Source of the DNA: Alphaproteobacteria bacterium
Lineage (GTDB): Bacteria; Pseudomonadota; Alphaproteobacteria; Rs-D84
Assembly (NCBI GenBank): GCA_017522445.1
Contig: JAFWZK010000014.1
Coordinates: 21,783-85,782 of the forward strand
DNA: 64,000 nucleotides
Direction: 5' to 3'
The notes beneath the pieces are model-generated. The model saw nothing but the letters and a program-made list of their open reading frames with translations, ran no database searches and was not told where the DNA came from. Positions 1,000-46,060 of this stretch are shown piece by piece (within the stretch, counting starts at the first letter, position 1; each line of letters begins with the position of its first letter). The position numbers were made by a program, and so were the translations under genes.

Positions 1000-2286
1000 T
1001 TATTTTGAACCGATAACCTTTGCCCACGATTTTGCGGTTTCCTGGGTTTTTTTCCACAGTGTTTTTATATCAGACTTTAATGTATCGCCCATTTTTGTAT
1101 CTATTGCACCGCCCAGATCGGTTGCGAATTTCATTGCGTTTTTCGCCAGGTACATAGTTATCGCCACCACCAGTATTGTGACAAAGAATCCCGGGCTGTT
1201 GAAATCGGGCAGTTCGTCCACCGCACCAAAGTCTACAATTCCCCCCAACAGTGCCGCACAAATCGCAATGACAACACTTAATACGATAAAGTGCAACGCC
1301 GCATTAATAAAGCGTGATATCTGCGATTGCAGCGATTCTGCCTTAAATATTCCCATAAATCCATTAAATATATCGCCTGCGATTCCCTTGTACGATGTTT
1401 TTCCGATTGTTTCGGCCAACGCGGTAAATGGCAGCATAATAATCCCCAGGAACAAATCTGCGATTACACCAAACGCAATAAATGCGAATCGCCAGCTTAG
1501 CATTATAAAGCATATTATCAACGTCACCCCACATGCGAAACCAAATACGCTGTTTCCGATTGACAGTCCAATCCATTTCCACCCCAGTGCCACAGCCGTA
1601 TAGCAAAACCCGGCCAACCGTGTAGGCACGCACATGATATCTGCGGCATGCTCTGGGGATAACAGGTTTTCTGGCAAAGTATGATTGGCGGCATATTCGC
1701 GAATTGCCCCACATGTATCGGGCAGGTTAATTCCCGCTGTTTGTGTAATTGCATTCAATATTGCATCGCTAATTGCTGTCCCAATCAGCAGTATTGGTGA
1801 CATGACCATCATAAATGTCTTGGCGGGGCCAATCATCAGCACACCGGTCCACAGTGCGACCATTACGCCTTTTTTTACGATTTCTTTTATTTTATCTTCA
1901 GGTTTACTTTTTCCGATAATAATTGTATATGCCTCGAACCCAATCCAGAATGCATACGCAATAATGATAAACAGAATCACAAACCGCACCAGCGAAGTAT
2001 CCAACACATGTGCAACAAACGAAAAAGCATTCATGAACGCCAGTCCGATTTTTGCCTCGACTGGGACAAAGTCAGGAACGATTTGCTGTTGTTGTGTAAA
2101 ATATTTAACATCTGTGGTCATTTTTTCAACAAATCGTTCATGGTTATTTTCTGTTGCCCATGTTCCGAATTCGCCCACGTCCGCCATTGGCAAATTAGAT
2201 TCCGTTGCGAATGCCGGCACAACCAGGCATAATGCAAAAACCGCAACCAGAATTCGTGATAAAAATTTCTTTAAATCTTTCATCAT
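1000..2286 (-). CDS. VirB6/TrbL-like polytopic inner-membrane protein, paralogue 1 of 5
   Basis: 428 aa with an N-terminal signal/TM segment, many TM helices and a Lys/Trp-rich C-terminal tail. It is paralogous to the four adjacent membrane ORFs and sits in a window that also encodes VirB8/9/10. Confidence 0.5.
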   Translation of the reverse strand: MMKDLKKFLSRILVAVFALCLVVPAFATESNLPMADVGEFGTWATENNHERFVEKMTTDVKYFTQQQQIVPDFVPVEAKIGLAFMNAFSFVAHVLDTSLVRFVILFIIIAYAFWIGFEAYTIIIGKSKPEDKIKEIVKKGVMVALWTGVLMIGPAKTFMMVMSPILLIGTAISDAILNAITQTAGINLPDTCGAIREYAANHTLPENLLSPEHAADIMCVPTRLAGFCYTAVALGWKWIGLSIGNSVFGFACGVTLIICFIMLSWRFAFIAFGVIADLFLGIIMLPFTALAETIGKTSYKGIAGDIFNGFMGIFKAESLQSQISRFINAALHFIVLSVVIAICAALLGGIVDFGAVDELPDFNSPGFFVTILVVAITMYLAKNAMKFATDLGGAIDTKMGDTLKSDIKTLWKKTQETAKSWAKVIGSK

Positions 2287-3770
2287 TTCTTTTCCATAGC
2301 CCCGGTAATTTTTTCAGTGATTTGCACAGGCACATGCCAGATTTTTTGTCCCAAGTCATGCACCCATGCACCAAAGTCAAATTGTTCACCGGTTCCGACA
2401 TTTGCACTTTCACCTGGGATTGGTAATTTTATTGTACCCGCCGGCAACAGTTTGTCTATTTTCGGGCTGATTGCGTAATAGTACAGCAAGAACAGACATA
2501 CCATCATCAGCATAAAATCCCATCCATCTTTCATAAAGTCAAATGCACCTGGGTATTGTCTTTCGACCTCGGCCTTGCGTGCGATAAAGCATTGTTTGAA
2601 TATGTCTTTGTTGATTTGTCCATCTGCCAATGCGACCTGTTCGCAGGTTGCGAAAACATTCATAACGGACAGTGTTTGTGCATCTGGGTTTTGCACGGTT
2701 TGTCCCATCAACGGTGGCAAGATTGCACTGTATCCATCATTTGGCCCTGGCATAAATGTATCTGCGGTATATGATACAGTTGCATATATGATAATGACTT
2801 TCAGTGTAATTGCGATGATTCTGACTGCGGACGATATCAGCATACCGATTGCCTTGCTGACCAGTCCGTTGGCCTTGGCCCAGACATTTTCGAATGCAGT
2901 TGCCGCCAGCAGCAGTGGCAAGAATATAATCAAGAAAACCAACTTGAACACAACGGACAGAATTTGAAAGAATAAATCGAAACCGATAATCATGAACATT
3001 ATGACCAGTGCCAAACCTGCAATCCATGTTAACGCACCGCCACCCATGTCCATCCAGGCATAATTCATCATTGCAAATCCGCCTGCCGCCCCGGCCAGCA
3101 TTACACTGTTGATATTACCCATCACGCACATAAATGGTTTCATGATTGGGTTCAATATATCTTCTGCATCGGTTTCGCCAATTGCCCCCAGTGCATCACA
3201 TTGTGCAGCGTCCCCAACGCCTGTGGCCATCATGGACAGTTCTGCCCCTGTGTACAGTACGGGCGTAATAGTTATCTGTGAAACGGTTTTCAGTGCGGTT
3301 GTTCCTCCCATACCCAATGCCCCCATCAGGATTCCGACAACAAAAATTCTGGTTGCGGGTTTCCACAGTTTTTCCAGCCACGGTTTAAATTCTATTTTAT
3401 GTTCCTTGGGGTCCAGTGTTGCGGTTTTTTTTGCGTGTTCAAAGAAGTATTGGATGGTGTGAATCAGGATAAATACACCAAATCCAATAATCATCAGCAC
3501 CCACAGATTATTGACCATCAGTCCCCAGAACTTTTCAGTTGCCCCACCAATTACCCCGAACAGGTCTGCGACATATCGGCACAGAAAGCAACCATTTGCG
3601 GATGCGATATCGCCGTTTTCCACGCCGACTGCGGTCAGGAAGTTATTCATACTGGTATATGTTATCGACCCGCCACCAATAGATGCAGAAATATACCAAA
3701 TCCCGATACCCAGCGCGACCAGTACCATAATAATTCGCACGGCGATTAAAATCAGTTTTGCTTTCACCAT
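2283..3770 (-). CDS. VirB6/TrbL-like membrane protein, paralogue 2
   Basis: 495 aa polytopic protein that overlaps its neighbour by 4 nt. It has an N-terminal C-x-x-C-x-x-[VF]-D motif shared with paralogues 3 and 5, and a K-rich C-terminal tail. Confidence 0.5.
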   Translation of the reverse strand: MVKAKLILIAVRIIMVLVALGIGIWYISASIGGGSITYTSMNNFLTAVGVENGDIASANGCFLCRYVADLFGVIGGATEKFWGLMVNNLWVLMIIGFGVFILIHTIQYFFEHAKKTATLDPKEHKIEFKPWLEKLWKPATRIFVVGILMGALGMGGTTALKTVSQITITPVLYTGAELSMMATGVGDAAQCDALGAIGETDAEDILNPIMKPFMCVMGNINSVMLAGAAGGFAMMNYAWMDMGGGALTWIAGLALVIMFMIIGFDLFFQILSVVFKLVFLIIFLPLLLAATAFENVWAKANGLVSKAIGMLISSAVRIIAITLKVIIIYATVSYTADTFMPGPNDGYSAILPPLMGQTVQNPDAQTLSVMNVFATCEQVALADGQINKDIFKQCFIARKAEVERQYPGAFDFMKDGWDFMLMMVCLFLLYYYAISPKIDKLLPAGTIKLPIPGESANVGTGEQFDFGAWVHDLGQKIWHVPVQITEKITGAMEKK

Positions 3771-4960
3771 TATTTACCGTCCTTTTTATCGCCACCCGAG
3801 ATAATAGTTTTTCCAACTTTGACTGTTGCATCAAATGCGTCCTTGGCCAGGGTCAATACATCATTTGCCAATTGTTCACCCATATCCTTTTTCTCGGCAA
3901 CGTCAAACGCCGCCAGGAACATTTTAGAAACCTGTGGTATTTGTTCCTGAATAAAGTTCAAAACATATACCAGCACAATTGCACTTATCAGTGTCATTGC
4001 CTGCAGGTTTTCTGTATTTAAATCGGCTTCGAACACCTGTCCTGTGGTTATGGCGGTCATCAAATCTGCGGCCGATGCATCTGGTGCAGAAAAGAACTTG
4101 GCGATAATTACCATAATAATGGTATACGTCAGCACAACCGACCCCAGTGTTACGATTGCATTAATCAGATTTTTAATTTGGTTAACACCGACCCCAGACC
4201 CCAGTTTACCAATCCATGCGGGCACATGTTCAGCCCCTTTGAATGCAAACGCGACCAGCGATATTGGAAAGAAAAACGCAAAGAACGCCATCGCCACAAT
4301 TGCATCCAGAAAATAACAACAGTATCTGAAAAATAACTTAAAAAATCCCCATGCCAGATACAGCCCAATCATAAACAAAATAATATGCTTAATCAGTATT
4401 CCGACCCCCAGTAATGCCCGCCATGTAAATGCCTTGTCCATCATTGCGATACCCAGTTTAATATATGACTGGAATTGAGTAATTGTTGTTTTCATCAGCA
4501 ATATGATTTTGTCACGCAGTTCTGGTCTGTAAAATCCATCATCGCTCATTTCTTGTGGTTGATATGTAACCTTTTCTTCGACTGCATCTGTATCCATTTT
4601 TGTAATGGCCTGGGTATATGTCAGTGTAATTTGTGCGACTGGTTCGAAAATAATTGTTGTAACAGTGCGTGGCAGCATAACCCCCATGCCCATCAGTGCA
4701 ATTGCGACAATTCCATTAACAAAGACCCGTTGTATAGATTTTTCATACAGAGTATCTGCAAAGTTATTTTGAAAATTTTTCCAAATTGCATTTACCATAA
4801 ACACAGCGAACAGAAACACAAACAGAATCACACATATTTGGCTGAAATATCCATATATATTTGCCGCCGCCATGGACACGATTTGAAACAGTCTGTCGAA
4901 CACCCCACAGCCCCAACACTGCACAGCATTTTCCACCAAAGATGATGTCCACTGGTTCAT
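3770..4960 (-). CDS. VirB6/TrbL-like membrane protein, paralogue 3
   Basis: 396 aa polytopic protein with the CWGCGVFD motif, arranged in tandem with its neighbours. Confidence 0.5.
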   Translation of the reverse strand: MNQWTSSLVENAVQCWGCGVFDRLFQIVSMAAANIYGYFSQICVILFVFLFAVFMVNAIWKNFQNNFADTLYEKSIQRVFVNGIVAIALMGMGVMLPRTVTTIIFEPVAQITLTYTQAITKMDTDAVEEKVTYQPQEMSDDGFYRPELRDKIILLMKTTITQFQSYIKLGIAMMDKAFTWRALLGVGILIKHIILFMIGLYLAWGFFKLFFRYCCYFLDAIVAMAFFAFFFPISLVAFAFKGAEHVPAWIGKLGSGVGVNQIKNLINAIVTLGSVVLTYTIIMVIIAKFFSAPDASAADLMTAITTGQVFEADLNTENLQAMTLISAIVLVYVLNFIQEQIPQVSKMFLAAFDVAEKKDMGEQLANDVLTLAKDAFDATVKVGKTIISGGDKKDGK

Positions 4961-6237
4961 TTCTTAATCCATCCTGCGGCGGTTCCAATTGCTTTGCCTG
5001 TTTTTTTTATGTCACCCCAGAGTGTACCTGCATCGGCCTTGACACTTTTATACAGTCCGTCCATACCGCCGCCAATATATTTATTCAGCTGTTGCTGAGT
5101 TTTATCGAATATTTTGAACATTAAATAGAACGTCAGTATTGCGGACATCCATGTTACCGAGTGTTGTCCAAATCCTGTTGTCTGGTTTGCGATGGTTGGG
5201 ATATTGCTGGCGGCACTGCCCCCTGCGGCGACAACAAACACAGACGAATTCCAGTTAAACAATGCACGTATCACGGCCAGATTTATACACAACATAAATG
5301 CACACGCAATCATTGTCACAATCAGCTGTTGCAGTGCCTTGGTAATACCGCTGAATGCGGGCCAGACATCGAACCATTTATCACTGGGTTTCACGACGTA
5401 TGTCAGTACATGAAACGGATACAGTATCAATTGCATGCCAAAGTTAAATATTCCCTGGATAATCAGCAGTGCCATAAACAAATTACTGGCCACAAATGTA
5501 AAGATTAACAGTATCCCCGTAATAATATTTAAAAAGTTTTCACCCCCATGCGGAATCAAGGTCATCAGTCCCTGTAAACCGCGTGTCAGTTGTGCGAAAC
5601 CATACTTTACAATTTGGTTATTTGCGTTTGATAAATCGGACACAGGTTGAATCAGGAAATCACATGATTCCTGTGAAATCCAGTTATGTTCCAGAATATC
5701 TGCGGGGCATTTTACCTGGGGAATATTTTGTGGATTTTGTATAATTTGTTCTGTGATAATTCCCGTATAAATCGCCCCCAGTTCCAGAAATGGATTTACC
5801 AGCCACTGTGTTAAAAATACGGGTTTCATCTGTAATAAAAATACAGCGGCTATAATTGCACGTGTTCCAGACTTTAAAGTTTTTTCTATGATTTGATATC
5901 CTGTAATTTCACCATCTGCAATTTCACCGCCCCCCGATATTCCCAGAACAGACAACCATTTTTTTGGGAAATACATTTTAACGACTGTAATTGTAATCGT
6001 GATACCCAGGAATATCCAAACAAACGCATAGATAAATCCGTCACCATTTCCGACAAAGAAATCATACATACTTGTAGCGACCAGCATCATCGCATCCAGT
6101 ACCAGCGGCACAAACGGTGCCAGGTTTAACGAATCTATGATATTACCTGCGTATGCGGCATCTGGCATGACAAACATCACGCCCAAAAACAATCCGAAAA
6201 TTATTTTTTTCAGCAGGTACATTCTCTGTATTTTCAT
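4957..6237 (-). CDS. VirB6/TrbL-like membrane protein, paralogue 4
   Basis: 426 aa with a signal peptide, polytopic topology and a ...LWGDIKKTGKAIG... tail like the other paralogues. Confidence 0.5.
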   Translation of the reverse strand: MKIQRMYLLKKIIFGLFLGVMFVMPDAAYAGNIIDSLNLAPFVPLVLDAMMLVATSMYDFFVGNGDGFIYAFVWIFLGITITITVVKMYFPKKWLSVLGISGGGEIADGEITGYQIIEKTLKSGTRAIIAAVFLLQMKPVFLTQWLVNPFLELGAIYTGIITEQIIQNPQNIPQVKCPADILEHNWISQESCDFLIQPVSDLSNANNQIVKYGFAQLTRGLQGLMTLIPHGGENFLNIITGILLIFTFVASNLFMALLIIQGIFNFGMQLILYPFHVLTYVVKPSDKWFDVWPAFSGITKALQQLIVTMIACAFMLCINLAVIRALFNWNSSVFVVAAGGSAASNIPTIANQTTGFGQHSVTWMSAILTFYLMFKIFDKTQQQLNKYIGGGMDGLYKSVKADAGTLWGDIKKTGKAIGTAAGWIKK

Positions 6238-6291
6238 TTTATGTTTTCAATTATATCACATTTTGTGCAAAATATGATATACTTAAAAACA

Positions 6292-7581
6292 ATGAACAGG
6301 TTAAAAAAGTTTTGGACAGTATTTTTATCATTCTTGCCCTGGGCGGCGGGTGCGGGTGTTCCGTTGCTGATTGGTGGTGTTGCCGGGGTTGGTATGTTGG
6401 CAGGGTTTTCGATATATCGCACATCGGTTCCTGTATCGCCAACAGACGCGTACCAGTTTTTTTCCAGTTGTTGGACCTGTCAAATGTTTTCGGACATTAT
6501 GGCAACGATGTCTGGTATTTTGCCACGAATATATCATGCGCTGGGTCAAACGATTGTTCCATTTACGATTATGCTGACCGCCATATGGTGGACGTGGAAA
6601 ATTGTCAGCGGTCTGCTTAATGGCAAAGTTGATGCCCCCTGGACATTGGCCAGTACATTTGTAAATCACATCAGTCGTCTGGCGATTGTCTGTATATTTT
6701 TACTGGCACCATTGCCGCGTTTAATTTCAGACGTTGCGATTACGCCGATTTTTAACATAGGTTTGTCATTGAATCGTGCGGTTGTTCATGATGATGGTTT
6801 TGATACATGTGTTATTTCCACTGCTTTGACTGATTCGACGGTGGTTGATTCTGCTGTGGCGGATTCCGGTGCGTTTTCGCCCACGCTGCGTCATAATTTG
6901 GCGTGTGAATTATCTGGTGTGCATCAAATGACGGGCATGGGCATGACGGTTGGCTGGACCATGTTGAACATGGCGTTTGATGCAGACTATATGCACAAGA
7001 TATTATGGGGTGTTCCGATTTTTCCGAACGTTATATTGTTTTTTGCAGGTTTATTGGTTTTGATTTTGTTTTTTTCAGCATTATTGCCAATACCCATATA
7101 TTTTTTAGAGATATTTATAACATTGGCATTGGATATGGTGATGTTACCGTTTATGTTATTGGCCTGGCTGTTCAAGGGTTGGCAAATATCCTTGGCTGGT
7201 GCGGGCAAAACGATTCGCGGCATTGTGGACGATGTGATAAATGGCACATTGGGTTTGGCGATGACCGGGATATTTGTATCATTTGCGATAATGTTTCTGG
7301 ACGCGGTGTTTGGTGATTGGAATGGTGTATCTGCGTTATCTGTTGCATTAACCCAAAACGATTCGAAATTTTTGATGGATGCCTTGATGATGCGTAATGA
7401 CGGGCTGATAACGGTAATATTTATGGGTATCTTTTTAACGATGTTCATGATAATGATACCCGCCCTGGCCAAGAGTTTATTCGACGTTCAGATTTCAACA
7501 GACTTCTATGACACCACGAAAAAGAACCTGGATATTCTGTGGCAAGACCTGAAAAAGTGGTACTCAGCAATAAAAAAATAA
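6292..7581 (+). CDS. VirB6/TrbL-like membrane protein, paralogue 5, transcribed divergently from paralogue 4
   Basis: The ORF track starts at 6241; the internal start MNRLKKFW at 6292 is more plausible. It has the CWTCQMFSD motif, a polytopic topology and a ...LWQDLKKWYSAIKK tail. Confidence 0.45.
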   Translation: MNRLKKFWTVFLSFLPWAAGAGVPLLIGGVAGVGMLAGFSIYRTSVPVSPTDAYQFFSSCWTCQMFSDIMATMSGILPRIYHALGQTIVPFTIMLTAIWWTWKIVSGLLNGKVDAPWTLASTFVNHISRLAIVCIFLLAPLPRLISDVAITPIFNIGLSLNRAVVHDDGFDTCVISTALTDSTVVDSAVADSGAFSPTLRHNLACELSGVHQMTGMGMTVGWTMLNMAFDADYMHKILWGVPIFPNVILFFAGLLVLILFFSALLPIPIYFLEIFITLALDMVMLPFMLLAWLFKGWQISLAGAGKTIRGIVDDVINGTLGLAMTGIFVSFAIMFLDAVFGDWNGVSALSVALTQNDSKFLMDALMMRNDGLITVIFMGIFLTMFMIMIPALAKSLFDVQISTDFYDTTKKNLDILWQDLKKWYSAIKK

Positions 7582-7648
7582 AAATCAAGTGGTTTATTTT
7601 ATTTGCCCCCCTTTTTTATGCCGTCCGAATCTGATATAATTCATACCA

Positions 7649-8158: not shown

Positions 8159-8234
8159 ACTGCGAATATTTCTTGCTTTCTATAAAAATCCTTGTATAAT
8201 CTAGTGGCTAAAAATTTAAACAAAGGTAAAAAAC

Positions 8235-8447
8235 ATGAAAAAAGGGATTCATCCAGAATATCACGAAATCAACGTGACACGCACAGATGGCAAGACTGTT
8301 AAGATGTACTCGTCTGTTAAAAAAGATTTGATTTTGTCGACTGACAACTTGAACCATTCCGCCTGGACGGGCCAGCGTTCAAATGCCGGCGAAAAGGGTC
8401 AACGTGCCAACCAGTTTAAATCAAAATTCGCTGGGTTTAATTTCTAG
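8235..8447 (+). CDS. rpmE: 50S ribosomal protein L31
   Basis: The N-terminus MKKGIHPEYHEI is diagnostic. The ORF is 70 aa and has an AAAGG ribosome-binding site. Confidence 0.9.
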   Translation: MKKGIHPEYHEINVTRTDGKTVKMYSSVKKDLILSTDNLNHSAWTGQRSNAGEKGQRANQFKSKFAGFNF

Positions 8448-8478
8448 GGCCCAGTTTTAATCAAAACGATAACAAATT

Positions 8479-9204
8479 GTGTCTGATGGGGGCGGCGACA
8501 TGGAACATGTAATCAAAGGTTCAACAGAATTAAACAAAATGTTTATGGCGTTGCAACGCACGGCGGCTGGGCTTCGTCGTGATTTTGGCGAAGTGGAAAG
8601 TCTGCAACAATCTTTACGCAGTGCGCGTGATTTTGTGAACAAGGCCGCCAATCGTATTGAAGAAAGCATTGTCTCTGACCTGATGTTGGTCCGTCCTGCG
8701 GCGGGTTTATTGACACCGAATATATCGCGCAGTGGTGACGGCCGGGATGAATTTGTGCTGTCGCTGTCGGGTGCGTCAAATTTTGTTCGTGGCAATCCGC
8801 ATTTTGCGATATCTTTGGCGTTACGCACCAATGACGAGACGCGTATTGCCTTGATATATTCTCCGATTGACGATCGTCTTTATTATGCCGAGTCTGGACG
8901 TGGTGCTTTTGTTTTTTCGGCACATCATTCTGCACGTTTACGTGTTTCCAATATATCTGACGTGGCCGAGATAACGGTTGGCTATAACGTTTCTGATGGT
9001 CGTCCGATGATTGGCGATGTTCGTTGTACGGGGTGTCCTGCGTTGGACATGGCGTGGGTTGCATCGGGCAAGCTGGACGCGTATGTATCAGACCTGTTGG
9101 ATTTTGCGGAAATTGCCGCTGGCGATTTGATTGTTCGTGAATCTGGTGGTCGCACAGAAATGTTATCTGATTTGGTTGTAACAAATGGTTGTGTTCAGAT
9201 TTAA
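8479..9204 (+). CDS. Inositol-monophosphatase (SuhB) family protein with degenerate metal-binding motifs
   Basis: The C-terminal region matches the IMPase motif (...ASGKLDAY...DFAEIAAGDLIVRESGG). In the N-terminal half, SLSGAS replaces the conserved DP[IL]DGT. Confidence 0.6.
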   Translation: MSDGGGDMEHVIKGSTELNKMFMALQRTAAGLRRDFGEVESLQQSLRSARDFVNKAANRIEESIVSDLMLVRPAAGLLTPNISRSGDGRDEFVLSLSGASNFVRGNPHFAISLALRTNDETRIALIYSPIDDRLYYAESGRGAFVFSAHHSARLRVSNISDVAEITVGYNVSDGRPMIGDVRCTGCPALDMAWVASGKLDAYVSDLLDFAEIAAGDLIVRESGGRTEMLSDLVVTNGCVQI

Positions 9205-21632: not shown

Positions 21633-21971
21633 ATGCCTGGGTGCGGGCGCACGGGTCCCTTACAACCGTTAAAAACCTTAGAAAACAAACATTTTTCGAT
21701 TTTTAAAACTAATATTTTGCTGGTCTTGATTGACACTTTGCTTTACACACTTGATTATAACACAAATAAATTAAAAGCACAGTATTTTTTATAACCACGT
21801 AACCACATAACCAGAAATAATATTGAAATTATCCCTAAACTGCGATAGAATTAAACCAGAATCCAGTGGGAATTGGATTCGGGACTGTGATAAGTCCAGA
21901 TTACACGGTGCAAATACGCATCGTTATCTTGATATAATGGTGCGTTGCGCCGTTATGTCCCTGACCTTTGT

Positions 21972-22081
21972 GGTCGGGGGGCTGTTGGCTATACAACAGG
22001 GGAAACCTAAAGGCCACGGAATCACTTGTAATCTGATTTATCAACTCCCCGACCGTCTTATTCCCTATGGCGGTCTTTTTT
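21972..22081 (+). promoter_or_regulatory. Conserved structured 5' leader, copy A (candidate riboswitch or attenuator with terminator)
   Basis: The outer helix is GGUCGGGG(21972-79) paired with CCCCGACC(22047-54). The inner helix uggc/gcca encloses the conserved UAUACAACAGGG...AAAG. A terminator hairpin gaccg...cggtc followed by U6 lies at 22051-22081, about 20 nt before the lipoprotein start codon. Confidence 0.55.
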
Positions 22082-22101
22082 ACACTTACAAGGGGATAGA
22101 T

Positions 22102-22542
22102 ATGAAAAAAATCATTTTTATTTTGCCTATAATATTACTGTGTGCATGCCAAACTAAAATATTTTACCCATACGATGGCACAAAAACAATAACTGGCGAT
22201 GGTGGTTTTGTATGGACACATATACCCGCATCCAATTTGGGCAAGCCCATGTTTGGCAAAACGCCAAAATATAAATACGACAGTGTAGCATTTTATGAAT
22301 CTGGACTACCCGCAGGTGCAAAATGTACCTTAGTTGGTTATTATGCAGCATCTGACATAAAACAATTTGCCAGAAAGATGCTTGAAATGGATGCAAATGT
22401 CGCAACCAAATCCCCTGTTATTCTGCCTATCAGCTTTGATAATAATGCTGGCATACTCGGTGGCACACGTGCAGCCAGCGATTGGTATAACGTGGACAAC
22501 ATAAAAGTTGCCACTGGGTTTAATATTTTTGAATGTAAATAA
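22102..22542 (+). CDS. Small lipoprotein or secreted protein
   Basis: The track ORF is trimmed to MKKIIFILPIILLCAC, a lipobox-like signal, with an AGGGGA ribosome-binding site 6 nt upstream. The mature part is Gly/Tyr-rich. Confidence 0.6.
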   Translation: MKKIIFILPIILLCACQTKIFYPYDGTKTITGDGGFVWTHIPASNLGKPMFGKTPKYKYDSVAFYESGLPAGAKCTLVGYYAASDIKQFARKMLEMDANVATKSPVILPISFDNNAGILGGTRAASDWYNVDNIKVATGFNIFECK

Positions 22543-24283: not shown

Positions 24284-24507
24284 ATCTCGTGCAAAGAAAT
24301 ATTGATTTTAAGATGTTTTTTTTGTATCATAAACAATGAATCCACAGGTTAGTGGTTTCAGGGTCTTCAAAAACCTGTTAAACAACCGGCATAACAATCA
24401 TTGTTGTGCTGTAATCCGCACAAAAGAAATGGACGCGGATGCGTCTTTTTTTTGTGAAACACCTTTGGCACACCGTGTAATTCTTTTACATGTTTTCCAC
24501 ATTGTGT

Positions 24508-24625
24508 GTCGGGGTGCTGCCGGCTATACCACAGGGGCATGGCCCCAAAGGCCGGCGGGAATCATTGTTGTTTATGGTTTTTTGAACACCCCGACCACCG
24601 TATCTGTATGGTGGTTATTTTATTG
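24508..24625 (+). promoter_or_regulatory. Conserved structured 5' leader, copy B
   Basis: The outer helix is GUCGGGG(24508-14) paired with CCCCGAC(24589-95). The inner helix gccggc/gccggc encloses UAUACCACAGGGG, a ggggcauggcccc hairpin and AAAG. A terminator gaccacc...ggugguu followed by a U-rich run lies at 24593-24625, and the start codon is at 24640. Confidence 0.55.
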
Positions 24626-24639
24626 TCGGGGGGCGATAG

Positions 24640-25527
24640 ATGTTTCGCAGGATTGTTTTTCCTGTTATTTATATGTTGTTGTTTATTTGCACTGCATATG
24701 CACAAATGCAGTGTGATGACAGCAAGTGCTGGCATACATTAAATTTTGGTGAACATTCTGTACGTGCCTATGACAAACGTTCTACAACCCCGTCAATTTG
24801 TATTCAGGACACATCTGGTCAAATCTGGTATGTTAACATGGTTTTGGGGATGTTGCCACAAACACTGCATGCCCAGCAGGGTACAGAAATATATTCCGCA
24901 ACAGATGCACTGTATGAAATTGTTGATGGACGACTGGTATGGGCACATCCTGATATTTATTTGCAAAGCAGTGGCACCCAGTACATAGATACCGGTATTA
25001 CACCATCAGACACACTGGGGTTGCGATTTGATTATCTGCGTGAAAGTGGTACATCAGATCATGTGCTGATTGGGTCGCAATTGGAAATTGGTTCGGCCGT
25101 TCCTGAATATGCCCGCTTTACATTGGGGCAAAGCAACAGCCCATATTATGGATGGAATACGTATCGGCATACTGGGTTAAGTATCACGGAACGTTATTTG
25201 GTCAACTTGAATTACATGAACAGTCGTGAAGTTACGTACAATGGTGCGGTTGTTAAAACGGGGCTGGATACACATCTTGACAATCCGTACTCTATTTATG
25301 TATTCTGCACGAACCGCAAAGGGACGGCATCTGTTTGTTCCAAGATAAAAGTGTATTCTGCGATATTAACGGACGGCGCGGAAACGGTTATGCATTTGGT
25401 TCCTGTGCCATCAGGTCTGCAGATTGGTGATTTTACAGTTCCATCAAACGGCATGTTTGATATTGTTTCTCAGAAATTTTATGGCAATTCTGGCACGGGT
25501 GATTTTGAATTTGGCACAGATTATTAA
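24640..25527 (+). CDS. Secreted hypothetical protein
   Basis: 295 aa with a signal peptide (MFRRIVFPVIYMLLFICTAYA) and no recognisable domain. Its GGGG..GATAGatg start context is shared with the 22102 lipoprotein gene. Confidence 0.6.
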   Translation: MFRRIVFPVIYMLLFICTAYAQMQCDDSKCWHTLNFGEHSVRAYDKRSTTPSICIQDTSGQIWYVNMVLGMLPQTLHAQQGTEIYSATDALYEIVDGRLVWAHPDIYLQSSGTQYIDTGITPSDTLGLRFDYLRESGTSDHVLIGSQLEIGSAVPEYARFTLGQSNSPYYGWNTYRHTGLSITERYLVNLNYMNSREVTYNGAVVKTGLDTHLDNPYSIYVFCTNRKGTASVCSKIKVYSAILTDGAETVMHLVPVPSGLQIGDFTVPSNGMFDIVSQKFYGNSGTGDFEFGTDY

Positions 25528-39785: not shown

Positions 39786-39816
39786 AAGTTCCGCCCACAT
39801 TGGGCGGATTTTTTTA
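39786..39816. terminator. Bidirectional intrinsic terminator (ccgcccacattgggcgg)
   Basis: Hairpin flanked by A- and T-runs, lying between the convergent yidC and Stealth genes. Confidence 0.7.
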
Positions 39817-40803
39817 TATTTCGAATTGTGATTTATCTGGAAACTTTTTATTTAAAAATTCCCAGTTTTTTTGTCTGACCTTATCGGATGTATTTGCACT
39901 GTCGTTTATGCAGAACAGTGGTGGGTTTACGTGCTGCATTGCCCGTTCCGCATTTTCGCAATACAGTGGTGCGTTTTTGCATTCGTGATGATGTGTAATA
40001 TTATACAGAAAATGTCGTGCACGTTTAAAATGTCTGGCCCGTTTCAGTATTGCACGTCCGTGCACAAAGTCATACAGATTAAAAATCCATCGTTGCAGTT
40101 CCCAGTTTGTTCTGAATTTATTTCTGATTTGCATATCAAAGTGTTGCACCAGCAAAGGGTGATTTCTGCATTGTATCATCGAAGATTTGATATATGGGTC
40201 GATATTATGTGCAGGTGCCATTTGCAGTAATTTTTTTCCAAATATTTTATGCAATTTGTGTGCCGCCATCAGAATAGTTTTTCTGTAATCAGATTCAACC
40301 ATTTCCATTGCGTATCCGACATTGCTGATTTTTTTATTTTGTGTATACCATACAATTGCTCGTCCTTGTTTGTCATAAAAGAAATCTGGTGTCAGTGGTT
40401 TGTTAAAGAACATATCATCATTTGCCAACAAGAAATGTTCACTCAGGTTTGGTATATTCATGATACACATTTCAATTGCAACCGAATTGAACGTAGGCAG
40501 ACTGTCTGCCGGCATAATTTGTTCATGTGAAACAATTGTGATTTTTGGATTGTTTGTGTTCAGCCATTTTGGTATCTGGCCAAATCCTGTCACGATAAAG
40601 ATATGGTTTATCCAAGGTGCGTATTTTTCTGCACTTCGCAGGGCGAATTTTAATTCATCATTATCCCTCCATCGGGCATCCACGGTTGAGTCATGACAGA
40701 CGGCGACCTGTTTTTTTATTTTTTGCAGCCAGAAATTTTTTTCTGTTATCCAGTTTTTATCACTGCCATCAACCCACATATACACTAAATCAATTTTTTT
40801 CAT
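39814..40803 (-). CDS. Stealth-family hexose-1-phosphoryltransferase (CR1-CR3 motifs present)
   Basis: Trimmed to the internal start MKKIDLVYMWVDGSD, which is Stealth CR1. It also carries DNDELKFALRSAEKYAPWINHIFIVT (CR2) and FNSVAIEMCIMNIPNLSEHFLLANDDMFF (CR3). An AAAGGA ribosome-binding site precedes the start. The track's 5' extension would overlap leader C. Confidence 0.85.
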   Translation of the reverse strand: MKKIDLVYMWVDGSDKNWITEKNFWLQKIKKQVAVCHDSTVDARWRDNDELKFALRSAEKYAPWINHIFIVTGFGQIPKWLNTNNPKITIVSHEQIMPADSLPTFNSVAIEMCIMNIPNLSEHFLLANDDMFFNKPLTPDFFYDKQGRAIVWYTQNKKISNVGYAMEMVESDYRKTILMAAHKLHKIFGKKLLQMAPAHNIDPYIKSSMIQCRNHPLLVQHFDMQIRNKFRTNWELQRWIFNLYDFVHGRAILKRARHFKRARHFLYNITHHHECKNAPLYCENAERAMQHVNPPLFCINDSANTSDKVRQKNWEFLNKKFPDKSQFEI

Positions 40804-40828
40804 TTTTATGTCCTTTGATTTTGCCAAC

Positions 40829-40931
40829 AAAAAACCGTCAAAAATTGACGGCCGGGCATTTTCAAGGTCATAAATCCAAATGACTCTGTGGCTTTCGGGA
40901 ATCCCTGTTGTATAACCACAGATACCCGACC
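40829..40931 (-). promoter_or_regulatory. Conserved structured 5' leader, copy C
   Basis: On the minus strand the outer helix is GGUCGGG(40931-25) paired with CCCGGCC(40856-50), including one U-G wobble. The inner helix cugugg/ccacag encloses UAUACAACAGGG, a gggauuccc hairpin and AAAG. The terminator ccgucaa-uuu-uugacgg followed by U6 lies at 40851-40829, and the start codon is at 40803. Confidence 0.55.
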
Positions 40932-41057
40932 TCACATGGGGGTCAGGTTACATATCGACACGCATTGCGTGCCGTGGATTTATGGGTCTTGAAAACCCAG
41001 ACCTTTGATTATCAGGTCGATGGCATTATGCCCCAGAAAAATAAAATTTTCAACTGA

Positions 41058-41399
41058 TTAAATTGCCTTCAATTTTTTATACAGTTGCCACGGTGTTTGA
41101 ATCCATATATTTTTTAATCCGATTGCATGTTTGGCAAATTGTACACATGTCAGTGCCCTGGGGTGGGGCGGGATATCTTTGTATTTCCGGGGCAGTATTA
41201 AAAATTCCCAGCCAAATTTTTCCAGTATTTTAATATCCCGCAATTTTATTATTATTGGGACGATTTGGTTATATTTTACAAAATGCATCATGGTCGCTGT
41301 GTCTGCAGTTGGGACGATGATTGCCACGTGTTTAAAGTTTTTACACAGTAATTTCGGCAGTATCTTTGATGTTCTATTTGAAAATCCAATAATTATCAT
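41058..41399 (-). CDS. Hypothetical protein, possibly a permuted NlpC/P60 (LRAT-like) hydrolase
   Basis: 113 aa. A His-containing motif (KHVAIIV) precedes a Cys motif (TCVQFAKHA), the order seen in LRAT-like enzymes. The call is weak. Confidence 0.3.
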   Translation of the reverse strand: MIIIGFSNRTSKILPKLLCKNFKHVAIIVPTADTATMMHFVKYNQIVPIIIKLRDIKILEKFGWEFLILPRKYKDIPPHPRALTCVQFAKHAIGLKNIWIQTPWQLYKKLKAI

Positions 41400-41446
41400 A
41401 ATTCATCCTTTTTTCTGGAAAATCCCCCGTGTTATGGGGGATATAT

Positions 41447-41791
41447 TTATTCAATCCATCCGCGTTGTTTGGCTGCTGCCTCCAGTACGTTCATTGCGGT
41501 GTTCCATTGTGCTGCTGCACGATTTTCTGCCCAGATATATTGATGTGGTGCCCGTTTTTTATCACCAAACTTTTTCATAATTTCCAATTGTGTATCGGTC
41601 AATTTTCCGGCCAAATATAATTTGGTAATCAGTGTTTCTACATCTAATATTTCACATGGTCTGCGTGTTGGGTTTCCGCCACGGTTTATCAGTCTGTTTG
41701 CACGCATTTGTCTTGAGTATAAAAACCAGAACCATAATTGTTCAGCACTTTGAAATTTTTCATTTGATACAATTGGGTTTGTGTTTGTCAT
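41447..41791 (-). CDS. Hypothetical protein
   Basis: 114-aa basic protein directly downstream of virB10, with no motif I can recognise. Confidence 0.35.
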   Translation of the reverse strand: MTNTNPIVSNEKFQSAEQLWFWFLYSRQMRANRLINRGGNPTRRPCEILDVETLITKLYLAGKLTDTQLEIMKKFGDKKRAPHQYIWAENRAAAQWNTAMNVLEAAAKQRGWIE

Positions 41792-42106: not shown

Positions 42107-44512
42107 CTATAATATTGGCGGGAAACAGTCACCACCACTTTCTGGGCAACAGTTAAACCCTTGTTCGCCCATATCGGTGTATATTTCGCCTGGACAGCAA
42201 CCATTTGCATCTGGTGGTGTGCCACCTTCGCACAGTATTTGTTCCTCGACTTCTTCGATTGCGGTCGTTGTGCCAGTGTCGTACGGGTTTTGTACGGCAC
42301 CATCTGTATTGTATTGTACCCCCAGTATTTCCTGGTTAAACTGTTGCGAGCCAACACCCCCCAGGTCTTCTATTTTTTGCTGATACTGTTGCTGTTGATC
42401 TTCGCGATAGATATCGTATTGCAACGCCTTTTTAGACTGATAATTCAAAGAATCACAATACATTTTCAGTGTACTATACGAATGCCCCCCGCATACATTA
42501 GTCTTGCCTGCACCCTGTCCGGTGCATTCGGATTTGACACGCCACAATCCTTGTTCGTCTTCTTCGCAGTATATACCTGTTGTGAACGAACGCGATTGCC
42601 CAACCCATGAATCATCTTGTGCGGCATACAGTTCCATGTCATCTGATGTGATTGTTCGTCTTTTATCGTTGCCAAATGGGGCGACTGCACACTTTTTATT
42701 TCCGTTTGGCCCATCTTTGGTGCCACAGGTAATTTGCAAATCCACGGGTGAATAGACGGTTATCCGTGTACCTGCTGCGATTGTAAATGGTGGGACGGTA
42801 TTGTCCATCATATCGACCATTAACTTTTGTGCGACCTGGTTCCATGCGGTTATAATTTCATTTTTCGCCAGTTCCGATGAACGCATTGTGCCGCTTTGCA
42901 CCACTGTATTGTTATCCAGGTCGATTTGATTCACAAACGCATCTGCAACCGGGTTAATCAGGTTGATTGCCGCCGGCACAAATGCGGTCAGCATAGGCAT
43001 AAAGAACTGTTCCAGATAGTCTGAACTGCCCCGTCCCGGTACACCAACGCGTCCCTGGGCATCTGCCGAATATGGGTCAGAGCCTGCTGGAAAATTAAAT
43101 TCCACACCATCTGGTCGAATAAACTGATACCATTTGATTTGCATACGTCCAATTGTCTTGTATGGTCCTGGGACTTCACCTGTAACATATCCCAACATCA
43201 GTGTTCCTGTTGGAATAACAATATTGCGTCCGTCATCAGAAAAAACATTTCTGTCGACTGTTGCACGAACCGGTACACCCAACTGCAGGGCAGGGATGTC
43301 TGCACGAATATCAGACACGATTGTTGCCGGGATTGGCTTATACTGACGTAAAACAAAACTGCGGTCGTACGGTGCGGTTGAAGTCACAGTATTTTGACCT
43401 GTGGTCCCAAATATAACACCCGTTTCGGGGGCAGTTTTTATAACACTGCCAAAACCACCATCTTCGGCCCCCAGTCGCATTGCGCCGTAACTGTCTGGTA
43501 ATTCATCCAGTTCCAATTGTTGTGCCCGATTTACCACTGCGATTGCAGGTGCATTGGATAATTCTGGCAACACGCCACCGCTGATTGCGGCGAACCCGAT
43601 ATGGTCTGCATCTGTTCCGATTTTTTTACCATTGTTATCGGTAATTATACCGTTATCTGGATTGTATGTTCCCGCGGGTTTGCTGCAGTTTGTATCGGCA
43701 AACGTATGGAAAAAGTACGCCCCGCCACTGGGTTTTATCCATCCGCTTTGCCGTCCCTGATTGTCAAAGGCCGCAAACGCAAAGTCCGAACAACCATCTG
43801 GTATTGTAAATGTACGTTCTGTCACGTTTTTTGTTATCACTGGTTCGACTATGACATCTGGTGCAATAGATTCTATTTCCCGTTTTATTTCTTCTTTGAC
43901 AGGGGTGTATGCGATTGGTTCGAACTCGGGCTCTGGCTGTTCTTGGATAACAGGTTCAACAATTTTAACGGTCTGGGGTTCTGCGGGTTTTTGTTCAATC
44001 TGTGGTGCGACCGCCCCCAGTGTAATGACGATTTTTGCAGTTTTTTTCATTGCATCCGTTTCGTCGGCGTCGTGCCAGTCGACAAATACCGGCAAATTTT
44101 TTGTTGTCATAACGGCTGTTGGTGCATAGTCCAAATACACACCACATGCCAGAGTGCTGTCTATTTTTTTAATTTGTTTACACGTGTCCCGCAATGTCAG
44201 CCCCGGCGTATTTTCATGCAGTCTGACATCAACAACATTGACAGGTGCGGTTGCAGAAATTTTAACTGTTTCTGATTTTTTTTGTCCAACCAGAGTATCT
44301 GCCCAGTTTATCATATCTGGTGAAATGACCAAATCGGTCGGTATGGCATCTGTTGCATCATCATCATTGTTGTTATTATCGCCCCCAATCAACAACACCA
44401 GCAAAATCAGCACCACGGTAAATGCGGCCGCCAACAACAACCACTGTACCCGTCTGGGGGTATTTTTACGCAAATCAAGAAATTGCTGTTTTATTTTACT
44501 CATGCTCTCCAC
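42107..44512 (-). CDS. virB10: Type IV secretion protein VirB10/TrbI with a long N-terminal region and a Cys-rich C-terminal extension
   Basis: N-terminal cytoplasmic segment and TM helix (WLLLAAAFTVVLILLVLLIGG), a Pro/Glu-rich linker, and a TrbI/VirB10 core (...VPVRATVDRNVFSDDGRNIVIPTGTLMLGY...GRVGVPG...). It is 801 aa. The last ~200 aa contain about a dozen Cys. Confidence 0.8.
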   Translation of the reverse strand: MESMSKIKQQFLDLRKNTPRRVQWLLLAAAFTVVLILLVLLIGGDNNNNDDDATDAIPTDLVISPDMINWADTLVGQKKSETVKISATAPVNVVDVRLHENTPGLTLRDTCKQIKKIDSTLACGVYLDYAPTAVMTTKNLPVFVDWHDADETDAMKKTAKIVITLGAVAPQIEQKPAEPQTVKIVEPVIQEQPEPEFEPIAYTPVKEEIKREIESIAPDVIVEPVITKNVTERTFTIPDGCSDFAFAAFDNQGRQSGWIKPSGGAYFFHTFADTNCSKPAGTYNPDNGIITDNNGKKIGTDADHIGFAAISGGVLPELSNAPAIAVVNRAQQLELDELPDSYGAMRLGAEDGGFGSVIKTAPETGVIFGTTGQNTVTSTAPYDRSFVLRQYKPIPATIVSDIRADIPALQLGVPVRATVDRNVFSDDGRNIVIPTGTLMLGYVTGEVPGPYKTIGRMQIKWYQFIRPDGVEFNFPAGSDPYSADAQGRVGVPGRGSSDYLEQFFMPMLTAFVPAAINLINPVADAFVNQIDLDNNTVVQSGTMRSSELAKNEIITAWNQVAQKLMVDMMDNTVPPFTIAAGTRITVYSPVDLQITCGTKDGPNGNKKCAVAPFGNDKRRTITSDDMELYAAQDDSWVGQSRSFTTGIYCEEDEQGLWRVKSECTGQGAGKTNVCGGHSYSTLKMYCDSLNYQSKKALQYDIYREDQQQQYQQKIEDLGGVGSQQFNQEILGVQYNTDGAVQNPYDTGTTTAIEEVEEQILCEGGTPPDANGCCPGEIYTDMGEQGFNCCPESGGDCFPPIL

Positions 44513-44536
44513 ACCCGTGTTATATTGTGTATAGAA

Positions 44537-46060
44537 TTATTGCATCCGAACAACACTGCAGCTGGTTCCGCTGAATCTCAGCAATTTATCACACAGTGTT
44601 TGTGCCGTGTCAATATCTGCGAATGGTCCGATTCTTAACCGGTATTGCCGTGCCGTCGACGATGTAGCCCCCAGTTCGCCAACCCCCTGTTCATCTACTG
44701 CAAAGAACACCATATCTTTATATGGGGTTAATAATCCTTGTCCGTCATCGCCGCTGAATTTGGCCATCAGTGTATTCCAGTATTCGTCCAGTGCGGCCAC
44801 AGATGTATCAGATTTCAGTTCCAACGCAACCCCAACCTGGTTACTGGCGATTAATGGTATGTTTGACTGTGGCAGATATGCCCCGGCTGTGTTTCGTTGC
44901 TGTGGCAGCATATTTACCACACTGCCCGACGACTGTGGCATGACCTGTGGAACTGTGAACCCGGCTGGCACATAGTATCCGGCCCCGGTTGTTGGATTAA
45001 CTGTCTGTGTATTTCCAACAAACATTGGTGTTCCGGTATAGTTTGTACCCATGCTCATTGCGGCCATGCTGTCCGTATATGCGATGTTGTTCAGTGATTG
45101 TCCCGACAGCATGCTTTGTGCAACATTTGCCTCGGCCAGTGCCATTACCGATGCGGTATCTGCGATTAAGAATGGTTTTTCACGTTTTTTGATACATACA
45201 ATTCTTTGTCCGCTGCGTAATACCATATCACCCACCGCCTCGACAATCAGCAGTCGTCCATCTTCGCCATCTGTGCGGAATCCAACGGGCGATTCACCAC
45301 CTTCGACCAACAGTGACACGACCGGTCGCTGTGTCATAGAAATAACCTTGTCGCCAAAGTCGATATATGTAAATATTCTGTCCCGCCATACGCGTTCTGG
45401 GGCGATGACATAGTCATCTGGGTTTGGTACAAAGATGTCCAAATCGAATCTGAATTCAGACGGGTCGATTTTCATTGACTTTATCCATCCATAGTCTTCG
45501 CCATCGGCACCAACGACACTGGTTGCAGGTGCGGCTTTTTTAAATATAGAACTGGCCCCACCTGATGTTGTGGTGTTTCCCATCACGGGCAGTGTGCCAT
45601 TTCCGTCCAGCATAATATCCACCTGCGAGTATGTGATTTCGCTGGAATTAGATGGTTCACTGCGTAAATAGAAAATGTATTTGTTCCCAGATTTTCCCGT
45701 CACAATCATATTGGTATCTGACCCCTGGTTATCACCTGCCGGGGAAATAAACATTGTACGTTCTCCCTGGGTTGCGTCTATGGTAAACAATCCCTGATTT
45801 CCAATGACCGCATCGGCAATTTGTTCACCGTTGGGCAGTGTAATCATGGTTACCATACCGTTTCTCAGTTTGACTGGCAGAACGGCCCCCGCCGACCATG
45901 TCAGCTGGGCATAACCTGGTTTTGTACTGCCGGCGGCCATATTAGCGGTTGGATTATCCCATGCATTTTGCACCCCATACACCTCGGCATAGGCGGGCAG
46001 ACTTAAAATCCCGACCAAACAGAACACGGATATATTTAACTTTGATAATTTTGCCAGCAT
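44537..46060 (-). CDS. virB9: Type IV secretion protein VirB9/TrbG with a C-terminal SPOR-like extension
   Basis: Signal peptide and VirB9 N- and C-domains (...RDRIFTYIDFGDKV...). It is 507 aa. An extra ~220 aa end in QYRLRIGPFADIDTAQTLCDKLLRFSGTSCSVVRM, which reads as a SPOR fold. Confidence 0.75.
   Translation of the reverse strand: MLAKLSKLNISVFCLVGILSLPAYAEVYGVQNAWDNPTANMAAGSTKPGYAQLTWSAGAVLPVKLRNGMVTMITLPNGEQIADAVIGNQGLFTIDATQGERTMFISPAGDNQGSDTNMIVTGKSGNKYIFYLRSEPSNSSEITYSQVDIMLDGNGTLPVMGNTTTSGGASSIFKKAAPATSVVGADGEDYGWIKSMKIDPSEFRFDLDIFVPNPDDYVIAPERVWRDRIFTYIDFGDKVISMTQRPVVSLLVEGGESPVGFRTDGEDGRLLIVEAVGDMVLRSGQRIVCIKKREKPFLIADTASVMALAEANVAQSMLSGQSLNNIAYTDSMAAMSMGTNYTGTPMFVGNTQTVNPTTGAGYYVPAGFTVPQVMPQSSGSVVNMLPQQRNTAGAYLPQSNIPLIASNQVGVALELKSDTSVAALDEYWNTLMAKFSGDDGQGLLTPYKDMVFFAVDEQGVGELGATSSTARQYRLRIGPFADIDTAQTLCDKLLRFSGTSCSVVRMQ

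Follow-up and report, generated by a model that had tools for sequence, protein, structure and literature searches.

Stealth-family enzymes of eukaryotes act on glycoprotein glycans, and the Stealth polymerases of meningococci make polymer unaided. The meningococcal enzymes CsaB (SacB) and CsxA are larger than the protein described here and are encoded in group-2 capsule loci with ATP-binding cassette (ABC) export genes. We analyzed a predicted Stealth-family hexose-1-phosphoryltransferase gene, together with the RNA leader encoded directly upstream of it, in a stretch of 64,000 nt (the window) from an alphaproteobacterium of the Rs-D84 lineage (assembly GCA_017522445.1, contig JAFWZK010000014.1, positions 21,783 to 85,782). 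The gene is fairly ordinary; the unusual part of the locus is the structured leader, which has a built-in terminator. The enzyme probably decorates an envelope glycan, and we suggest, more tentatively, that its gene belongs to a dispersed set of surface genes preceded by the same leader.

In CpsY of Mycobacterium tuberculosis, the substitutions E305A, N322A and D324A cut activity 200- to 500-fold, and neither R419K nor R419Q retains any; Mg2+ is coordinated by D324, and the phosphate is contacted by R419, which lies in conserved region 3 (CR3) (PMC10668966). The leader has distant kin in the small RNA (sRNA) family sRNA-Xcc1 (Rfam RF02221), whose members have been placed in integron cassettes (PMC2996969).

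The gene encodes an intact protein with the conserved residues of the Stealth family

The coding sequence (CDS; 39814..40803, minus strand) is an intact open reading frame (ORF) of 329 aa plus stop. An earlier note on this DNA had assigned it to the Stealth family from short motifs, and all of these are present in the translation: VYMWVDGSD at residues 7-15, DELKFALRS at 49-57, NSVAIE at 106-111 and NIPNLSEHFLLANDDMF at 116-132. The assignment stands. Among the Pfam models of the family (PF17101, PF11380, PF17102 and PF17103), Stealth_CR1 matches residues 3-27 (33.7 bits, E 2.8e-8; curated cut-off 27.2) and Stealth_CR2 matches residues 44-148 (140.2 bits, E 3.4e-41; cut-off 39.4), scores that lie well beyond chance. 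The note's division of its motifs between CR2 and CR3 did not survive, since both sets fall within Pfam CR2 (44-148) and CR3 had been misassigned. No NCBIfam model matches the protein.

The true start of the gene is the ATG at 40803, not the GTG upstream at 40935, because all orthologues begin at the CR1 motif (MKKIDLVY or equivalent), a ribosome-binding site, AAAGGA (40811..40816, minus strand; conserved in the alignment of relatives), stands 7 nt before the ATG, and the upstream extension contains a terminator. The longer, GTG-initiated ORF of 373 aa was rejected, as orthologues are 329-334 aa long and the extension would cross the leader terminator.

When aligned with phmmer, E305, N322, D324 and R419 of CpsY correspond to E111, N128, D130 and R231 of the window protein. 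R231 sits in the motif KFRTN and is the equivalent of the essential CR3 arginine of CpsY. An alignment of 32 homologues (49-78% identity) shows no variation at R231 or at N128, D129 and D130, which form the NDD metal- and sugar-binding motif of CR2, and E111 is conserved in at least 90%; W10, V11, D12 and D15 in the CR1 motif (I/V-D-x-V-Y-x-W-V-D/N-G-x-D) are likewise invariant, as are C298, N300, F321, K324 and E328 in CR4. The earlier note had named two findings that would speak against it, loss of catalytic residues and a pseudogene in close relatives. Neither was seen: the CpsY-equivalent residues are all present, the orthologues are intact and full length with none disrupted, and pairwise dN/dS (the ratio of nonsynonymous to synonymous substitution rates) against them is 0.06-0.13.

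Searches of the Protein Data Bank (PDB) with phmmer gave the catalytic domain of the GlcNAc-1-phosphotransferase GNPTAB as the best match (E 2.2e-33 over CR1-CR2), with M. tuberculosis CpsY at E 5.6e-32. An AlphaFold2 model built from the 32-sequence alignment has a mean predicted local distance difference test (pLDDT) score of 90.9 and a predicted template modeling (pTM) score of 0.90. With this model as query, CpsY and GNPTAB account for Foldseek matches 1-13 in the PDB (E 1e-22 to 4e-18), and GT-A glycosyltransferases such as LgtC come next, only at E>=6e-6. The window protein as modeled has the Stealth catalytic fold, GT-A-like in the manner of CpsY and GNPTAB. It is placed in the Stealth family by its sequence, its key residues and this fold, and hexose-1-phosphoryltransferase activity is predicted for it. 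CR1 begins at residue 3, leaving no signal peptide and no membrane anchor, and action in the cytoplasm is therefore to be expected; the protein should be a bare catalytic core that works there.

An imperfect 18-nt tandem duplication within the gene (40001-40045, minus strand; AAACGGGCCAGACATTTT then AAACGTGCACGACATTTT) encodes KRARHF-KRARHF at about residues 254-265, in the variable spacer between CR3 and CR4.

Relatives occur widely in gut bacteria

The nearest relative that we found in public genomes is a metagenome-assembled genome (MAG) of an alphaproteobacterium from water-buffalo colon (L001 in our numbering; JAFYXG010000011), which is syntenic with the whole region at about 85% nucleotide identity. 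Other ruminant-gut Alphaproteobacteria MAGs encode relatives of the protein at 70-76% identity. Identity falls to 43-51% in Candidatus Enterousia and related gut MAGs, and to 34-42% in Melainabacteria (Gastranaerophilales) and numerous Bacteroidales. A protein search gave 1317 matches at E<=1e-3; among the best 120, lengths are nearly always about 330 aa, and some entries are named by NCBI "Stealth CR1 domain-containing protein" or "stealth family protein". The subfamily of about 330 aa is thus populous in gut bacteria and already automatically annotated. Paralogy within it is common, at loci that include L064 (9965-10927 and 11887-12879), L004 and L010: MAG CAMOCR01 has two Stealth paralogues, with 73% and 48% identity to the window protein, Proteiniphilum acetatigenes has two copies within a single LPS-core-like cluster (LPS, lipopolysaccharide), and L093 encodes a 574-aa tandem-fused Stealth protein (7001-8725).

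The intracellular habit that the earlier note had ascribed to the source organism is not demonstrated, as the nearest relatives are gut MAGs without evidence of intracellular life. That its genome is reduced is plausible. Alphaproteobacteria MAGs of the orders RF32 and Rs-D84 were described as metabolically reduced in a study of rumen MAGs in which their lifestyle was not established (PMC8992543). The window also encodes a MarR/TolC-like/AcrB efflux operon, KefB and pyruvate kinase, gene content that argues neither for nor against intracellular life.

A conserved, structured leader with an intrinsic terminator lies directly upstream

The 260 nt upstream of the ATG have a folding energy of -87.9 kcal/mol (z = -4.8 versus shuffled controls) and are conserved in close relatives. 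On the minus strand, a candidate sigma-70-like promoter for a transcript of leader and Stealth gene (TTGAAA-17-CATAAT, 41025..41053) is followed by the 5′ part of the leader (40960..41020). This part consists of a first hairpin (41018..41000), a hairpin with GGGUUUUCAAGACCC (40998..40984), the 5′ arm of stem P1 (40984..40975) and a variable hairpin, P2 (40974..40956). An equivalent promoter occupies the same position in L002, L003, L024, L083 and L004 and in two further copies of the leader in the window.

The leader core (40826..40959) is a three-stem element that resembles sRNA-Xcc1 and shows covariation; it scores 135 bits with R1, our covariance model of the leader, and 32.8 bits with RF02221. 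In order of transcription it contains segment a (CCUGACC, 40947..40941), segment b (GGUCGGGUAU, 40931..40922), stem P4 with the UAUACAACAGGG loop region (40921..40886), stem P5 (40884..40867) and segment c (AUGCCCGGCC, 40859..40850). This last segment shares bases with the 5′ arm (40853..40845) of an intrinsic terminator (40826..40853), in which the hairpin GGCCGUCAA/UUGACGGUU at 40853..40833 is followed by a U-run. From the U-run it is only some 25 nt to the start codon.

RNAalifold, applied to five sequences, predicts a four-way junction (P1, P2, P3 and P4) and then the terminator hairpin. P1 has compensatory changes in L024 (two) and L083, and such changes are also found in P2 and in the terminator stem. 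P3 is segment a paired with GGUCGGG of segment b. The sRNA-Xcc1 model pairs segment b with segment c, giving a layout of a:b, b:c and c:d helices in which c:d is the terminator stem. In an alignment of nine sequences, 97% of the cells of the Xcc1-like fold (which comprises b:c, P4, P5 and a portion of the terminator) are paired, with 10 pairs changed on both sides; none of 500 shuffles reaches the observed values, and slid-register controls are 34-48% paired. The intrinsic terminator directly upstream of the ORF thus shares bases with a conserved alternative helix, the layout of an attenuator. For each of the three window copies, the fold of minimum free energy is the terminator form.

We propose that the Stealth gene is a transcription unit of its own, in which the sigma-70-like promoter would drive a leader of ~200 nt that would by default fold into the intrinsic terminator, some 25 nt upstream of the start codon. 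With the terminator placed directly before the ORF, the enzyme would be made only when RNA polymerase reads through. The closing stem of the sRNA-Xcc1-like domain (b:c) uses bases of the terminator foot, and some ligand or protein that stabilizes this stem would turn expression on.

At gathering thresholds, Rfam finds only four tRNAs in the window. No known riboswitch family in Rfam matches the leader, and the E-value mode returns only a sub-threshold match to sRNA-Xcc1. A tmRNA or tRNA within the leader was considered and rejected, as ARAGORN finds none there. The earlier note had described the gene as lying under a novel leader; the conserved, structured leader is indeed directly upstream, but its novelty is partial, given the distant sub-threshold kinship with sRNA-Xcc1.

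A short, conserved hairpin, GG(U)UCGGG..UUCAAG..CCC, lies ahead of the core in every copy (e.g., 40984-40998, minus strand, and 24349-24372, plus strand), including the divergent copies of L012, L013 and L002. It could be a protein-binding site.

Copies of the leader precede other single genes

Searches with nhmmer and then with R1 identified further copies of the leader. Copy 2 (21949..22082, plus strand; R1 106 bits, RF02221 41.5 bits) lies upstream of a lipoprotein-like gene (22102..22542) and small secreted or membrane ORFs, and copy 3 (24482..24623, plus strand; R1 70 bits, RF02221 28.9 bits) lies upstream of a gene for a signal-peptide protein (24640..25527). In both, the terminator stands about 20-25 nt before a gene whose product has no Pfam family. 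The module of promoter, structured RNA and terminator, ~200 nt long, is therefore present three times in the window, each time with about 20-27 nt between the U-run and the start codon and a ribosome-binding site in that interval.

A copy precedes the Stealth gene in nine lineages. Glycosyltransferase (GT) genes of family GT2 follow a copy in L083 and the second copy in L002, and genes for secreted cysteine-rich proteins follow copies in L012 and L013. In L082 (2315-4265) the copy is followed by a 159-aa ORF and is itself directly downstream of a P4-type tyrosine integrase (Arm-DNA-bind_3, Phage_int_M and Phage_integrase domains), with two tRNA genes adjoining, an island-like setting that recalls the mobile-element settings reported for sRNA-Xcc1. 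PHROGs and Pfam yielded nothing usable for the genes downstream of leader copies or for the two small ORFs next to the Stealth gene, orf113 and orf114.

The leader is absent before Stealth orthologues of 70% identity or less (L005, P0016, P0021, P0046 and Enterousia); it is therefore a regulatory module of this clade and is not general to Stealth genes. A pattern scan of viral contigs gave no matches in phages, and a metagenome scan with an invariant 24-mer of the leader returned only three contigs.

The gene lies beside type IV secretion genes but is not linked to them in some relatives

The neighbours of the Stealth gene are yidC, lspA, kefB, the two small ORFs and virB8-virB10. The order on the minus strand is virB8, virB9, virB10 (ending at 42107), orf114 (41791..41447), orf113 (41399..41058), the leader and the Stealth gene. 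Downstream, a bidirectional terminator hairpin (TCCGCCCA..TGGGCGGA, 39790..39808, both strands) is common to the convergent yidC and Stealth genes. Terminator-like hairpins follow virB10 (42100-42085 and 42001-41982) and orf114 (41442-41422), and orf114, orf113 and the separate promoter (41053-41025) stand between virB10 and the Stealth gene.

This arrangement is retained in L001, L003, L024, L084, L094, L095 and L096. In L005, orf114 and orf113 stay with virB10 and abut yidC, and the Stealth gene is found beside a dacC-like gene; the L004 orthologue is likewise beside a dacC-like gene, with orf114 and orf113 remaining with virB10. L002 has 3.5 kb inserted between orf113 and the leader and has no virB genes nearby. 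Linkage of the Stealth gene to virB is lost in L004, L005, P0016, P0021 and P0046. The earlier note had the gene following the operon of a type IV secretion system (T4SS). It does lie downstream of virB8-virB10, but we rejected membership of the operon in view of the intervening terminators and two ORFs, the gene's own promoter and its unlinked position in some relatives. The adjacency is positional, not functional, because terminators intervene and some relatives hold the Stealth gene elsewhere.

Several other features of this region were recorded. The product of orf113 (41058..41399, minus strand) has no Pfam or PHROGs match and is hypervariable, being 43-55% identical among relatives whose adjacent orf114 is 68-90% identical; the two ORFs travel with virB10 rather than with the Stealth gene. 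The virB cluster (42107-46060, minus strand) contains only virB8, virB9 and virB10, with no virB11 or virD4 after them. Its VirB9 homologue bears a C-terminal SPOR domain, and its VirB10 homologue, of 801 aa, has a long N-terminal extension and a cysteine-rich C-terminal tail. Farther away (1000-7581), five tandem genes encode membrane or secreted proteins of about 400-500 aa with no Pfam match. There is weak paralogy between 3770..4960 and 6241..7581 (25% identity, E 9e-15) and between 1000..2286 and 4957..6237 (E 7e-4); the array could be VirB6-like or a surface-protein array.

The Stealth allele appears to have been exchanged between lineages

The Stealth CDS of the window is 97-98% identical in nucleotides to that of L001, and the flanking 6 kb are 72-90% identical. 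Synonymous divergence (dS) between the two is 0.10 for the Stealth gene and 0.58-1.09 for recR, kefB, lspA, yidC, orf114, virB9 and virB8. Because its dS is far below that of these seven flanking genes, we infer that the allele was recently exchanged by recombination between two otherwise diverged lineages.

The segment that contains orf113, the Stealth promoter and the first leader hairpin (40998..41446) is inverted in L001 (9354-9810). This inversion of ~450 bp is seen in L001 only, the window orientation being present in eight other lineages or contigs, L002, L003, L024, L084, L094, L095 and L096 among them. The flanks carry only weak inverted repeats of about 10-18 nt that lie off the junctions, and the junctions themselves show only microhomology of the GGGGGAT/GGGTTTT type. 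We considered a phase-variable invertible promoter and rejected it, given the lack of convincing flanking inverted repeats and the eight lineages or contigs in the window orientation. The inversion in L001 looks like a single rearrangement, possibly tied to the exchange event.

Discussion

We favor the reading, which we hold to be probable, that the Stealth enzyme makes a decorating sugar-1-phosphate transfer onto an envelope glycan of the lipopolysaccharide (LPS) or lipooligosaccharide (LOS) type. It would move hexose-1-phosphate or N-acetylhexosamine (HexNAc)-1-phosphate from a UDP-sugar to a hydroxyl of that glycan, and the product would be a phosphodiester-linked sugar. The likely target would be the LPS/LOS outer core or a short surface polysaccharide, and the enzyme would contribute a single decorating step rather than act as a capsule polymerase. 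Decoration is favored because the genes next to the Stealth gene in relatives are glycosyltransferase or LPS-type genes without capsule export. In a 64%-identical orthologue, a GT8 gene is followed after a 15-nt gap by the Stealth gene. Orthologues of 52-54% identity, located between bipA and recA, are accompanied by GT61, RgpF, an uncharacterized gene, GT2 and Caps_synth/GT32, in the order GT61, RgpF, uncharacterized gene, Stealth, GT2, Caps_synth/GT32. A 56%-identical orthologue is solitary, its neighbours being genes for OlsB/OlsA-like acyltransferases and for a lytic transglycosylase. In Proteiniphilum acetatigenes DSM 18083 (37% identity), the order is HldE, GT9, WbsX, two GT4, Stealth, GT2 and a second Stealth gene, and GT9 is the heptosyltransferase family. 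Capsule export genes occur in none of these four kinds of context, and several of them seem to point to LPS- or LOS-type glycans. The earlier note had proposed a regulated surface glycopolymer; a regulated surface glycan is the best reading, with the conserved leader directly upstream, but we favor decoration over a capsule polymerase.

A number of observations weigh against this reading. The neighbouring glycosyltransferase and ABC-export genes that the earlier note had suggested looking for do not appear among the about 45 window ORFs scanned with Pfam, which contain no glycosyltransferase, flippase, polymerase, ABC exporter or LPS gene, and the acceptor is deduced solely from more distant relatives (37-64% identity). 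Within the protein, Stealth_CR4 scores 23.2 bits (E 6.7e-5, residues 296-328), just below its cut-off of 27.4, and the Pfam CR3 model is undetected even at E<=10. As for the leader, the promoter is assigned by consensus match alone, and the a:b helix lacks covariation because segment b is invariant. Compared with the terminator form, the b:c form at full extension is less stable by 2-20 kcal/mol; in these fold predictions, the difference would fit a default-off element that needs an effector. Finally, a lone Stealth gene does not, by analogy, exclude a homopolymer, since the meningococcal polymerases need no partner to make theirs.

This last point belongs to the main rival, which we rank below decoration of an envelope glycan and consider unlikely: a capsule polymerase like CsaB or CsxA that builds an exported HexNAc-1-phosphate phosphodiester homopolymer. 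Family and catalytic residues are the same, Stealth polymerases are able to act alone, and regulation and horizontal exchange, both evident here, are frequent in capsule genes; yet the window ORFs scanned include no ABC exporter or other capsule gene, the protein is a bare 329-aa core that matches CpsY residues 201-520, and the neighbours in relatives are several glycosyltransferases and LPS-core genes (HldE and GT9), not capsule export genes. Far less probable is that the source organism is an intracellular symbiont whose Stealth enzyme, as an effector associated with the T4SS or co-regulated with it, phosphoglycosylates a glycan or protein of the host. The gene is indeed 1.3 kb downstream of virB8-virB9-virB10 on the same strand, and eukaryotic Stealth enzymes have glycoprotein glycans as their substrates, but this proposal has to contend with the terminators, two ORFs and separate promoter that intervene, with the displaced orthologues of L004 and L005, where orf114 and orf113 stay with virB10, with the 3.5-kb insert in L002, and with more distant orthologues that sit in bacterial glycan clusters. 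The C terminus, moreover, is the CR4 of the family with no added tail, and the nearest relatives are the gut MAGs described above, for which intracellular life is not in evidence. Nothing favors the host-glycan modification that the earlier note had offered as a possibility: there is no signal peptide, and homologues are common in Bacteroidales and Melainabacteria, where they lie in glycan clusters. We give as little credence to the idea that the gene is decaying or nonfunctional within a reduced genome. The lack of partner glycan genes in the window and the weak CR3 and CR4 matches to Pfam would suit it, but dN/dS stands near 0.1, every relative examined has an intact orthologue of full length, the catalytic residues are conserved (N128, D130 and R231 invariant, E111 in at least 90%) and the structural model is confident.

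The leader invites a rival reading of its own, namely that the upstream element is the gene of a free-standing, trans-acting sRNA like sRNA-Xcc1 and that the Stealth gene is expressed constitutively by leaky read-through. With its own promoter and a strong terminator, the element would give an RNA of ~200 nt as its default product, and all three window copies match the Rfam sRNA-Xcc1 model over its full length. In each copy, however, the ribosome-binding site and the gene start come within about 20-27 nt of the terminator, leaving no room for another promoter; the genes that follow, for Stealth, GT2, lipoproteins and secreted proteins, make up a coherent group; and the terminator foot overlaps the conserved closing stem. 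We regard this alternative as quite unlikely, and note that a trans-acting role and a cis-regulatory role are compatible with each other. Regulation in cis could extend beyond the Stealth gene, as the same leader would govern other single-gene surface functions in the clade, including GT2 enzymes, lipoproteins and secreted proteins. It is conceivable, with the balance of probability slightly against it, that uncultured gut Alphaproteobacteria have a dispersed surface regulon to which the Stealth gene belongs, in which the same portable module of promoter, sRNA-Xcc1-related sensor domain and terminator precedes single genes for glycan-modifying enzymes, lipoproteins and secreted proteins, and in which module and cargo are exchanged between lineages. 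The leader would then represent an undescribed cis-acting attenuator or riboswitch-like class, and sRNA-Xcc1 would be recast as a regulatory domain.

The Stealth gene adds one more enzyme to a subfamily of ~330-aa proteins often met with in gut Alphaproteobacteria, Melainabacteria and Bacteroidales. The gene is chiefly of value as a marker of poorly known gut alphaproteobacteria that have a predicted phosphodiester-linked surface sugar and an allele swapped between lineages, as is expected for an antigenic trait. The leader is the more useful lead, being supported by covariation, equipped with its own terminator and placed before several surface genes; it offers a tractable entry to envelope regulation in an uncultured clade and may suggest a function for the sRNA-Xcc1 family.

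Comparison with known systems

In form, the window protein is nearest to the catalytic core of CpsY (Rv0806c; PDB 8J2N). The two are alike in their core-only size (CpsY residues 201-520 versus 329 aa), in fold (Foldseek E 1e-22, target-normalized TM-score 0.83-0.85) and in having equivalents of E305, N322, D324 and R419. They differ in that identity over the structural alignment is about 25%, the 200-aa N-terminal region of CpsY is absent from the window protein, and the CR3-CR4 spacers are unlike, that of the window protein carrying the KRARHF-KRARHF duplication.

The Stealth catalytic domain of GNPTAB (PDB 7S6N, 7S05 and 9BGF) is the best PDB match by sequence and has a structural probability of 1.00; its reaction, the transfer of a sugar 1-phosphate from a UDP-sugar, would be the same in the window protein. 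GNPTAB, however, resides in the Golgi membrane, has >1200 aa, carries Notch, DMAP and spacer insertions and acts on the N-glycans of lysosomal enzymes, whereas the window protein is a soluble bacterial protein of 329 aa. CsaB (SacB) and CsxA belong to the same Stealth family, whose layout is CR1-CR4; of these regions, the window protein matches CR1 and CR2 above the Pfam cut-offs. In contrast to a group-2 capsule locus, in which export and assembly genes are adjacent, the scanned window ORFs include no capsule export genes next to the Stealth gene.

For the leader, the comparison is with sRNA-Xcc1. Both have a closing stem around two hairpins and share a first hairpin of the form AUACAA..GGG/CCC..GAA, and the three window copies match RF02221 over the full length of the model at 32.8, 41.5 and 28.9 bits, all below the gathering score of 53. 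The copies in L082, L083 and L004 give no RF02221 match at E<=0.1. The window element also differs in lying within a longer leader, with 5′ hairpins and a promoter before it and a terminator fused to the ribosome-binding site of the next gene. Because of this placement it is cis-regulatory by layout, whereas sRNA-Xcc1 has been described as a trans-acting sRNA.

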